From: a virus | Lineage: Duplodnaviria; Heunggongvirae; Uroviricota; Caudoviricetes | IMG/VR virus record: IMGVR_UViG_2695420487_000011 | Strand: one strand, 5' to 3' | Length of the DNA stretch: 4,125 bases | Shown here: piece after piece, positions 1,999-4,125 of the stretch | Layout: each line of letters starts with the position of its first letter | Position numbering within the stretch: position 1 is the first letter of the stretch | Program-made: the position numbers and the translations under genes | The notes under the pieces: model-generated | Database searches by the model: none | What the model saw: only the letters and a program-made list of their open reading frames with translations | What the model was told of the DNA's origin: nothing

Positions 1999-2017
1999 GG
2001 CGAGGCGGGGAAAGCAC
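1999..2017 (+). other. cos site: 19-nt P2/P4-type cohesive-end sequence GGCGAGGCGGGGAAAGCAC
   Basis: Exact match to the 19-nt cohesive-end sequence that I recall as shared by P2, 186 and P4. It is positioned about 165 bp downstream of psu, as at the P4 right end, and is flanked by GC-rich palindromes (CCCGC-AAA-GCGGG at 1984-1996; GGTGCTCG 2033-2040 / CGAGCACC 2061-2068). Confidence 0.75.
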
Positions 2018-2071
2018 TGCGCGCCCCCGGTTGGTGCTCGTTACTAATGTTTTTTGCGCCCGAGCACCGTC

Positions 2072-2099
2072 GGGAAGGGGCTGGGGGGGATAGGGGAGG
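2072..2099 (+). repeat. G-run tract (GGG-aa-GGGG-ct-GGGGGGG-ata-GGGG-a-GG) fitting a G-quadruplex-forming pattern
   Basis: Four or more runs of at least 3 G separated by 2-3 nt, read directly. It sits just upstream of the point where composition changes from GC-rich backbone to AT-rich cargo. Confidence 0.4.
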
Positions 2100-2219
2100 T
2101 GCCTGACGTCGCGCGGTAATGTTGGTAAGTGTGCCGCTGATGGCTTCTGAGGGGAGTGGTAAATAGCCGCCTTTCGACGGTGTAGTGGGGAGAGTATTGC
2201 TTACAAACGTAATGAAATT

Positions 2220-2308
2220 GTTTGAGTAGCTAGGCTACTGCATAGGATTATTTTGTTCTGTTAATATATCCGTTAATATAGATAGATTGATCCAATTGAG
2301 TTTAAGGA
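2220..2308 (+). promoter_or_regulatory. Putative promoter/operator region of the 569-aa ORF
   Basis: AT-rich leader containing a 15-bp palindrome AGTAGC-TAG-GCTACT (2225-2239), a direct repeat GTTAATATA at 2260-2268 and 2272-2280 (12-bp periodicity), candidate -35 TTGTTC (2253-2258) with -10 TATAGA (2277-2282), and SD AAGGA at 2304-2308. Exact promoter elements cannot be fixed by eye. Confidence 0.3.
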
Positions 2309-4018
2309 ATGAGTATGTTTCAGATATCAGCTGGAGTGTTCTTTGATTTAGATAAAATAGAAAAACACGATGGCACATTTGTTTTTTATTCAAATGTTGA
2401 TGTGTCTTTCTCGGTGGAAAACACCTCCCCTCTTTTTAAAGCAAATAAAATAAGTCATGATGGTATAAACTGTTATGTGGTAAACTATACTCTCCTGACC
2501 GAAAAACCAGAACGAATTGAAGCTGGAGTCGTAGTTAGGGCTGGTGATGAGGATTATAGGCAACAATTTATTTTATTATGGGAATTCTATTTTGATTGTG
2601 TGGCTAGAGTAGAAAAAGAATCGGTTAAAAAAATATGTGCATTATCAAATTTTAATAAACATCACTCAAAAATTGCGCTTGAAGTTGCCCCATATTTAGT
2701 GGAGATTAATCGAAGAGTTTCATTTGATGATGTCTCTGGGTTTTCTGCTTTTATTAAAGATGTAGTGAATCTAAATAGATCTGCCTTTAAATCTTTAATG
2801 GCAGCGTTAAAAATAATTAGTGATTCAAAAGAATCATTGTCAACCAACTTTGACCTGACTTATTCCATGTTAGTCTATGCCTTGGAGTCTTTGTCTCAAA
2901 GAAATGATAACTATAAGTCTGATTGGGATGACTACGATCAAAAAACCAGAGGTGAATTAGAGTCTGTATTTGAGCATATGCCTGGTGAGGATGTTTGTAA
3001 AATTAAATCAATACTTATTGAAGGCAAACAATTCAGATTACAAAAAAGGTTCAAAGATTTTATACTGAAAAATCTTGAAGAAAATTATTTCAATGAAACA
3101 GAGAGATATCCAATCCGCTATAGCTTCCTTAGTAGAGCTTTAGATAATTTATACAAAATCAGGTCTTCTTTTGTCCATGAGCTTAAGCCACTTGATGCAA
3201 TGATCTCGAAAGCCTACAATCCTGTTGGTGATTGTCTGGTTCTTTTTGGCGAACCTCACTTCAGTTACTCTGGATTGCTTCGACTTCTTCGCCATGTGAT
3301 AATAAATTTTTGCCGTAAAAACTACAGTCAAAAAAGAGAGTCTGTTAATTGGGTGATGGAAACATCGGGTGTAATGGTTGCAGAGATATCTGCACAATAT
3401 TGGCTCTGGAATGCAGACGGATTTACAGCTAAAAGTATAGCGAAGTGGTTTAGTGAATACCTAAATATGTTAAATTTAGGCGAAGTCACTGATTTGCAGT
3501 CTATCATGGACAAAATTGAGATAATCTATGATCAATCCAAAAAAGAATATAAAAATGGGTTGTTGCATTTTTATTTCTTATATAACTTAATGCATAATGG
3601 AAATAAGGGTGAATGGCTTGAGTTTGCGAACAAGCGAAGTTCTATACTTGTTTGTGATATATATTGGTATTCATGCTCTCCATATTTATATAAATCATTT
3701 ACTAATGTTTCAAATGGTATTGCTGATATAAAAACATTGAGAAACTTTTTGTCTTGTTTTAACGAATATGATAAAAATAAATTTAAGCCAAATCGTTTAA
3801 ATCTCCCTGCAATGACCGAAGTAATTATGTTGGCTTGCGCAGCAAATTCATTCTTCAGAATTGGAATGTATCAAGACTATGTTTTAATGGGCAATAGAGC
3901 GATGAGAGAAATTGCTTCAGTAAAAGATGTATTTTATTATATAAAAGAACGATTAAGTAATTCACAACTTATTGAATTGGACGAGTGCTTGAGATTGTAT
4001 AGAAAAAAGGGGGGCTAA
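2309..4018 (+). CDS. Hypothetical protein, 569 aa, AT-rich foreign gene at the P4 psu/cos-proximal hotspot; candidate anti-phage defence protein with a single HEPN-like R-x4-H motif (R285...H290)
   Basis: Long uninterrupted ORF (1.7 kb) in about 30% GC DNA, where random stop codons would be frequent, so it is very likely real. SD AAGGA at 2304-2308 abuts the ATG at 2309; the in-frame ATG at 2315 has better 6-nt spacing and may be the true start (567 aa). No Walker A, PD-(D/E)xK or zinc-finger motif recognised. Motif KIRSSFVHELK (nt 3161-3178 encode R-S-S-F-V-H) fits the HEPN R-x4-H consensus. Family assignment not possible without a search. Confidence 0.85.
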   Translation: MSMFQISAGVFFDLDKIEKHDGTFVFYSNVDVSFSVENTSPLFKANKISHDGINCYVVNYTLLTEKPERIEAGVVVRAGDEDYRQQFILLWEFYFDCVARVEKESVKKICALSNFNKHHSKIALEVAPYLVEINRRVSFDDVSGFSAFIKDVVNLNRSAFKSLMAALKIISDSKESLSTNFDLTYSMLVYALESLSQRNDNYKSDWDDYDQKTRGELESVFEHMPGEDVCKIKSILIEGKQFRLQKRFKDFILKNLEENYFNETERYPIRYSFLSRALDNLYKIRSSFVHELKPLDAMISKAYNPVGDCLVLFGEPHFSYSGLLRLLRHVIINFCRKNYSQKRESVNWVMETSGVMVAEISAQYWLWNADGFTAKSIAKWFSEYLNMLNLGEVTDLQSIMDKIEIIYDQSKKEYKNGLLHFYFLYNLMHNGNKGEWLEFANKRSSILVCDIYWYSCSPYLYKSFTNVSNGIADIKTLRNFLSCFNEYDKNKFKPNRLNLPAMTEVIMLACAANSFFRIGMYQDYVLMGNRAMREIASVKDVFYYIKERLSNSQLIELDECLRLYRKKGG

Positions 4019-4125
4019 CCCATAAGCGCTAACTTAAGGGTTGTGGTATTACGCCTGATATGATTTAACGTGCCGATGAATTACTCTCACGATAACTGGT
4101 CAGCAATTCTGGCCCATATTGGTAA

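Follow-up and report, generated by a model that had tools for sequence, protein, structure and literature searches.

A candidate cassette-borne promoter region ahead of the HEPN-TPR gene of a P4-like phage satellite

P4-like phage satellites carry a published defence hotspot, the interval from psu/cos to int, and systems from it have routinely been cloned "with their native promoter", several of them proving active in that form (Rousset et al. 2022, PMC9122126). For PARIS-1, inactivity from the native promoter was overcome with Ptet (PMC9122126). The same study holds a direct counterpart of the gene considered here: the protein is listed among the P4 hotspot loci (Table S1A, WP_000486482/481), and the locus of E. 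coli ATCC 8739 was cloned with its native promoter as pFR83, under the name "HEPN-TPR" (Table S2B; PMC9122126). HEPN-TPR appears only among the "additional tested systems" and is absent from the validated ones (PMC9122126).

We analysed a 4,125-nucleotide stretch of viral DNA (IMG/VR record IMGVR_UViG_2695420487_000011), hereafter the window, in which a single cargo gene is preceded by a short leader containing a palindrome and a tandem repeat. In terms of the window, the pFR83 insert begins within psu, at the sequence of position 1746, and continues through the gene, leader included (PMC9122126). The ATCC 8739 copy is 99.6% identical to the window over 2030-4020 and 100% identical over the leader, and it occupies the same position in the order psu, cos, cargo gene, int; the window copy differs in that it additionally has IS elements on both flanks. 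The promoter, the palindrome and the repeats are not described by Rousset et al. 2022 (PMC9122126), and a literature search on "HEPN-TPR" found nothing. Table 1 lists the features discussed below. Comparative loci carry L numbers, with the protein identity of their homologue to the cargo protein in brackets.

Table 1. Features of the cargo gene and its upstream region (positions in the window)
Feature	Position	Strand	Remarks
P4/P2 cos cohesive-end sequence, GGCGAGGCGGGGAAAGCAC	1999-2017	+	19 nt; P4 match stops at 1998; left border of cargo hotspot
Decayed cos right half and flank, GGGGAGAGTATTGCTTACAAACGTAATG	2186-2214	+	21/28 aligned to cos-adjacent sequence of L042
15-bp palindrome, AGTAGC-TAG-GCTACT	2225-2239		Exact match; arms 6, loop 3; lineage-specific
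Weak -35-like hexamer, TTTTGT	2251-2256	+	Within conserved ATTT block 2250-2253; 2/6 consensus match
Two contiguous 12-mers, TCTGTTAATATA + TCCGTTAATATA	2257-2280	+	11/12 identical; contain both GTTAATATA copies
Candidate P1 extended -10-like box, TGtTAATAT (copy 1)	2259-2267	+	Read from sequence; predicted start ~2274
Candidate P2 -10-like box, TAATAT (copy 2)	2274-2279	+	Only deeply conserved box (TAnTnT); predicted start ~2286
Short unstructured 5' UTR with SD AAGGA at 2303-2307	2281-2314	+	SD 7 nt before ATG 2315
Cargo gene, "HEPN-TPR" candidate defence protein, 567 aa	2315-4018	+	PGAP start

The cargo gene and its satellite

The window covers part of a P4-like phage satellite, which in intact copies lies at ssrA. 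Its order is sid (interrupted by an IS3-family element), delta, psu, cos, one AT-rich cargo gene and an IS4-family element; the open reading frame at 200-691 is the C-terminal part of Sid, and Pfam matches identify those at 688-1188 and 1262-1834 as an Ogr/Delta zinc-finger protein and Psu, respectively. Reference P4 matches the window at 98.7% up to position 1998, which is the right end of P4 (base 11624), and it is because the match ends there, at the right cohesive end, that cos is placed immediately downstream. Of 5426 complete E. coli genomes, 2250 share this backbone, and the similarity to them breaks off at about 2024-2038. Intact copies at the ssrA site, such as that of ATCC 8739, run from alpha through sid, delta, psu, cos and one hypothetical gene to int, with the integrase convergent with the cargo gene. 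The latter, a variable gene flanked in a P4-like element by psu/cos and the integrase, has the arrangement that characterises the described hotspot.

Both ends of the window are occupied by insertion sequences. Positions 1-120, on the minus strand, lie inside an IS3-family insertion sequence and are a 100% match to multi-copy "IS3 family transposase" elements found, for example, in O145 strains. The element joins sid at base 120/121, at a point 163 nt into that gene, and since it ends inside sid, the capsid-size gene is disrupted in this satellite copy. At the other extremity, 4021-4125 holds one end of an IS4-family element (IS421 family in the annotation, IS186-like), with the terminal sequence CATAAGCGCTAACTTAAGGG and a transposase start at ATG 4076. 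Its insertion site is the G-rich palindrome GGGGGG(T/C)TAACCCC, at which the stop codons of the cargo gene and the integrase overlap in intact copies; the cargo open reading frame is intact despite the adjoining insertion.

The interval between psu and cos holds two strong inverted repeats with 11-nt arms. The one at 1868-1898, GCCATGCA...TGCATGGC followed by TTT, is also found in the Erwinia and Pectobacterium relatives and looks like a late-operon terminator; the other, at 1926-1953, consists of GACCGCGCC...GGCGCGGTC. Between the working cos and the cassette lie about 168 nt (2018-2185) of GC-rich cos flank of the P2/P4 type. This is followed by the decayed second cos flank of Table 1, whose alignment score was equalled by 5 of 1000 shuffles, and in L042/L043 the same leader begins about 25 nt past the cos-flank sequence. 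It would thus seem that part of the cos flank of another satellite came in together with the cassette. In three E. coli genomes, NZ_CP098231.1 and NZ_CP098227.1 (H47 and H48) and NZ_JALDNN010000001.1 (H49), the match to the cargo region begins at window 2086 or 2162. The cargo region of H47 and H48 adjoins ypjA, which suggests that the rest of the satellite was deleted there and the cargo gene and integrase were kept.

The start codon of the cargo gene is the ATG at 2315, and not 2309: PGAP begins the gene at 2315, all homologues start MFQI, and the SD sequence fits this start. The protein contains an RxxxxH motif, RSSFVH, encoded at 3161-3178, whose R283 and H288 are invariant in 30 homologues, and it gives a weak PADLOC match to the Cas13-ApeA HEPN model (E = 7e-6). 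Searches of Pfam (E <= 0.01) and NCBIfam gave no match. An AlphaFold2 model (pLDDT 85.8) has a beta-rich N-terminal domain and a helical-repeat C-terminus; comparison with PDB structures gave no significant match, and fold searches returned helical-repeat matches only. We therefore regard the protein as a candidate HEPN protein, on the basis of the invariant RSSFVH and the weak PADLOC match, an assignment that Pfam and the structure search do not confirm. The family is small, comprising 54 clusters from Enterobacterales, Vibrio, Aeromonas and others. The gene in this form is carried by only 20 genomes, all at >=99% identity. At L015/L016 (gene at 4001-5695) and L023 a homologue of 60% identity is the second gene in the hotspot, after an AIPR-domain gene, and is thus paired with another defence candidate; the DNA ahead of it is different there and includes a near-consensus -35 box, TTGACC.

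Conservation of the leader and its promoter core

The 110 nt preceding the ATG occur in E. coli only in 19 genomes that have the cargo gene, are 100% identical in all of them, and were never seen beside other cargo genes in the E. coli genomes. Since the shared backbone ends upstream of this sequence and the leader occurs only with this gene, it is specific to the cassette: the leader belongs to the cargo gene and not to the satellite. Homologous leader and gene are found together in P4-like ssrA elements of Erwinia, Pantoea and Pectobacterium, and the gene lies in such elements of several metagenomic contigs too. Islands that are not P4-like, from Klebsiella and a metagenomic genome, also have both; the gene adjoins a umuD-like gene in Klebsiella and a TetR gene in another genome. 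A recognisable homologous upstream region is present in all relatives of >=69% protein identity, while those of <=63% have different upstream DNA. Most of these comparative loci came from exact-protein look-ups and from metagenome and viral scans; a scan of GTDB genomes gave 2 loci only, and the plasmid and phage collections held no homologue of the cargo region. A partial Salmonella copy of 95% identity came without its upstream sequence. The palindrome was also considered as the left boundary of the cassette or a recombination site, and this was rejected: homology to relatives runs leftward past it into the decayed cos flank, and a junction is also opposed by the exclusive association of the leader with this gene.

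Within the leader, conservation is concentrated in a core at 2250-2280. In an alignment of 11 relatives of >=69% protein identity, T2274, A2275, T2277 and T2279 are invariant, as are T2243, T2251, T2252 and T2257 further upstream, and A2250 and T2253 are nearly so. The downstream group forms a TA.T.T box that precedes the ATG by 40-42 nt in each of the 11 sequences and covers positions 1, 2 and 6 of a -10 hexamer, and the spacer separating it from the conserved ATTT block, or -35-like hexamer, is 17 nt. Identity to the window is inflated in non-coding AT-rich alignments, so the flanking segments serve as the control: in relatives of 70-76% protein identity the core is 58-65% identical, compared with 19-34% for the palindrome segment (2218-2249), 21-50% for the UTR (2281-2314) and 37-52% for 4-fold synonymous sites. 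At L011 (69%) the corresponding values are 48%, 41%, 41% and 42%. Conservation among homologous loci, which the original prediction had put forward as a check, is therefore seen for the core, and the palindrome and the repeat pair are kept in close relatives alone. Similarly, its view of the leader as the control region of the cargo gene stands in so far as the leader is cassette-specific with a core conserved across contexts, but the operator or regulator-site part of that view finds no support.

The two GTTAATATA copies noted in the leader are correct in sequence and lie at 2260-2268 and 2272-2280. Their spacing, described as about one helical turn, is 12 nt from start to start, slightly above one turn. 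Each contains a TAATAT hexamer (2262-2267 and 2274-2279) with the A at position 2 and the T at position 6 that are expected of a -10 box. At copy 1 the hexamer is in addition preceded, one base away, by TG, as in an extended -10 element, whereas copy 2 has CGt. Extended -10 promoters tolerate a weak -35 element. The copy 1 box resembles the extended -10 (TGn) sigma-70 promoters of E. coli in its TG, in the A2/T6 of the hexamer and in the weak -35, and departs from them in that its hexamer matches TATAAT at only 4/6 positions and a more deeply conserved -10-like box lies 12 nt downstream.

The two boxes have different histories. TGtTAATAT at copy 1 is kept in L042/L043 (91%), L005 (88%) and L003 (82%) and reads TGtTAATGT in L045 (81%); it is restricted to the clade of 81-100% identity and is absent in relatives of <=76%. 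In the alignment of this clade copy 2 forms a graded series: GTTACTCTA in L003, as in the distant relatives, CTTACTCTG in L045, GTTAATCTA in L044 (86%), and finally GTTAATATA in L042/L043 and the window. A graded series of this kind shows point changes, and not duplication, to be the origin of the repeat, the copies having become identical by two C-to-A substitutions in the -10 box of copy 2 (TACTCT -> TAATCT -> TAATAT). In L005 a 12-nt indel has removed exactly one unit, leaving TGtTAATAT as the sole -10-like box, which presumably suffices there on its own. The GTTAATATA pair is thus not conserved, copy 2 being TACTCT or TATTCT in relatives and L005 having a single copy, and the tandem repeat is best read as two neighbouring -10-like boxes, not as a duplicated operator.

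Promoter prediction gave a mixed picture. A position-weight promoter model placed the conserved box, paired with a TTCACT-type -35 at 16-17 nt, first in three relatives (L003, L026 and L007) and within the top three in four others (L018, L008, L022 and L027), that is, in 7/10 relatives in all; the scores are modest (5-8 bits), and rival candidates do as well or better in the window and the Klebsiella group. The -35 of the relatives is TTTCAC or TTCACT, with 4/6 matches and a 16-nt spacer, compared with 2/6 at 17 nt for TTTTGT in the window. A simple consensus scan of 1800-2500 found no promoter on the plus strand, because the -35 of the window is poor.

These observations suggest a model in which the cargo gene has a promoter of its own and a short 5' UTR at 2220-2314, and both move with the HEPN-TPR gene between sites; we consider this model probable. 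Two weak sigma-70 promoters that overlap, 12 nt apart, would drive transcription, either singly or together. P2, which is deeply conserved, would use the -35-like TTTTGT, the 17-nt spacer and the TAATAT of copy 2 to start at about 2286, and P1, confined to close relatives, would use the extended -10 of copy 1 to start at about 2274. Judged from sequence comparison, the conserved boxes likely serve as -35 and -10 elements, with the start sites and choice of promoters given here. The leader of the resulting mRNA would be short and unstructured, with plain translation initiation from the SD AAGGA. On balance we favour an ordinary, weak sigma-70 promoter borne by the cassette, with two -10-like boxes and a plain leader.

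The folding calculations are in keeping with such a leader. The two candidate 5' UTRs fold worse than shuffled sequences (z = +0.8 and +1.3), and the palindrome as an RNA hairpin (-6.7 kcal/mol) reaches only z = -1.2; the description of the leader as "structured" is not borne out at the RNA level. The idea of a conserved hairpin or operator in the stretch from the -10 box to the SD was rejected, RNAfold z-scores being unremarkable in 15/17 loci and the window UTR folding worse than shuffles. Two further points count against the promoter model. A conserved CTATG in the spacer is unexplained by a single promoter, and pFR83 conferred no phage resistance from its native upstream DNA, which may reflect very low expression or an unrelated cause.

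Silencing, operator and other readings

The alternative that survives best is xenogeneic silencing, whereby the AT-rich leader and gene would be covered by H-NS or StpA and the cargo gene hardly expressed, the TpA-rich repeats acting as nucleation sites. H-NS is known to prefer horizontally acquired AT-rich DNA in E. coli and Salmonella, and the AT-richness reported for the leader is real: GC content falls from 0.56-0.67 at 2000-2199 to about 0.30 from 2200, and most of 2200-2600 lies at 0.29-0.36 (one window at 0.41), as in H-NS-bound DNA. A gene of about 30% GC inside an E. coli mobile element is in this respect like known H-NS-silenced acquired genes, and the lack of phenotype of the native-promoter construct in MG1655 would fit. 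However, it is the whole 1.8-kb gene that is AT-rich and not the noted motifs in particular, and there is no specific signal. The high-affinity H-NS motif (TCGWTWAATT-like, 10 bp, <=2 mismatches) has 23 matches against 18.2 +/- 4.2 expected. Only two of these fall in the leader, at 2279-2288 and 2299-2308, each with 2 mismatches and off-centre from the GTTAATATA copies, so that the idea of the noted motifs as specific H-NS sites is without support. The lack of motif enrichment and of a known counter-silencer also sets the locus apart from H-NS-silenced genes, and the literature searched held no H-NS ChIP or hns-mutant data for the locus or for satellite hotspot genes. Silencing and the promoter model are not mutually exclusive, and the AT content of the whole cargo region makes it a plausible target of H-NS; as an account of this leader we regard silencing as possible but rather doubtful.

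A second alternative, and the substance of the original prediction, is that a dimeric transcription factor recognises the palindrome, the two GTTAATATA copies or both and so controls the cargo gene, as a repressor or an activator. The palindrome was described correctly, so the dyad symmetry is present, and with its centre at 2232, some 54 or 42 nt ahead of the predicted start of P2 or P1, it would be within the range of activators and repressors. The symmetry itself, however, is at the level of chance: a perfect inverted repeat as good or better (arms >=6, loop <=10) arose in 18.9% of 5000 shuffles that preserved the dinucleotides of the 89-nt region, and the window has 27 comparable ones. The arms are intact in L042/L043 and carry one transition each in L005, L044 and L003, none of them compensatory. 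Retention across the relatives of 86-91% would favour an operator, but in L005, the close relative in which they were measured, 4-fold synonymous sites are still about 73% identical, and the presence of the palindrome in close relatives therefore says nothing on selection. It is lost in relatives of <=76% protein identity, where it is unrecognisable; the number of its columns that match the window drops from 13/15 in L005 to 7/15 in L003 and to 2-5/15 in those relatives. We conclude that the palindrome, which lies upstream of the promoter core, is probably fortuitous and without function.

The direct repeat is locally unusual, and to that extent favours an operator: an exact repeat of >=9 nt within 20 nt occurred in 0.86% of the shuffles. 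About 0.4 direct repeats of 9 nt are nevertheless expected somewhere in a 4-kb window, so that window-wide it is unremarkable, and Tandem Repeats Finder did not call the repeat at 2257-2280. The different sequence of copy 2 in relatives, described above, and the single copy in L005 count against an operator here too. Moreover, neither motif recurs: there is no second copy of the palindrome in the window or in the 20-kb locus L001, and no further copy of the GTTAATATA motif, as might mark a regulon, in the 20-kb element. The cassette holds a single gene, with no regulator gene in any context, and Pfam, NCBIfam and a fold search on the AlphaFold2 model gave no DNA-binding domain for the cargo protein itself. 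With a dyad at chance level, no regulator and a repeat pair that is not conserved, the proposed palindromic operator and repeated sites are unsupported, and we hold regulation of this kind to be quite unlikely.

A more elaborate form of regulation would make the palindrome and the doubled -10 box an infection-responsive switch that keeps a potentially toxic HEPN-TPR protein off until infection, a host or phage factor acting on the palindrome from its position about 54 or 42 nt upstream of the two predicted starts. Were this true, it would explain the lack of defence by the native-promoter clone in plaque assays; both the switch and its proposed mode of action are very improbable.

Nor does the palindrome or the UTR make a convincing regulatory hairpin, be it for attenuation, for temperature sensing or for the termination of transcripts that read through from psu. 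The palindrome can fold, some inverted repeat lies between the -10 box and the SD in several relatives, and two of the three arm transitions would give G-U pairs. The third gives an A-C mismatch, however, and compensatory changes are absent; the z-scores given above are unexceptional for the hairpin and positive for the UTR, and Rfam gave no match across the whole window at E <= 1. The palindrome also lies upstream of both predicted starts, with no U-tract directly after it, and on these grounds an RNA-level role is highly improbable.

Least credible of all is that P2 Ogr or P4 Delta switches the cargo gene on during helper infection: the gene follows directly on the sid-delta-psu late operon and cos, sharing the element and neighbourhood of the P2/P4 late promoters and the weak -35 of activator-dependent promoters, but the TGT-N12-ACA dyad that marks the late promoters, centred near -55, has 0 matches in the window, and the same core is conserved outside P4-like elements, in Klebsiella and other islands without P4 genes.

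A promoter that travels with the cargo

The reading we prefer thus remains that of a weak sigma-70 promoter belonging to the cargo gene. The scientific weight of this is limited, the observation being real but modest. It has one practical consequence, because the native promoter, with its poor -35 and without a call in the consensus scan, looks weak and the gene has been tested only from it: a re-test of HEPN-TPR under an inducible promoter would be worthwhile, as for PARIS-1. More generally, the cargo gene of a P4 hotspot would carry its own compact promoter module, of about 65-100 nt, which is kept through moves between satellites and islands. A portable promoter module of this kind fits the modular swapping of defence cassettes that has been reported for P4-like elements.
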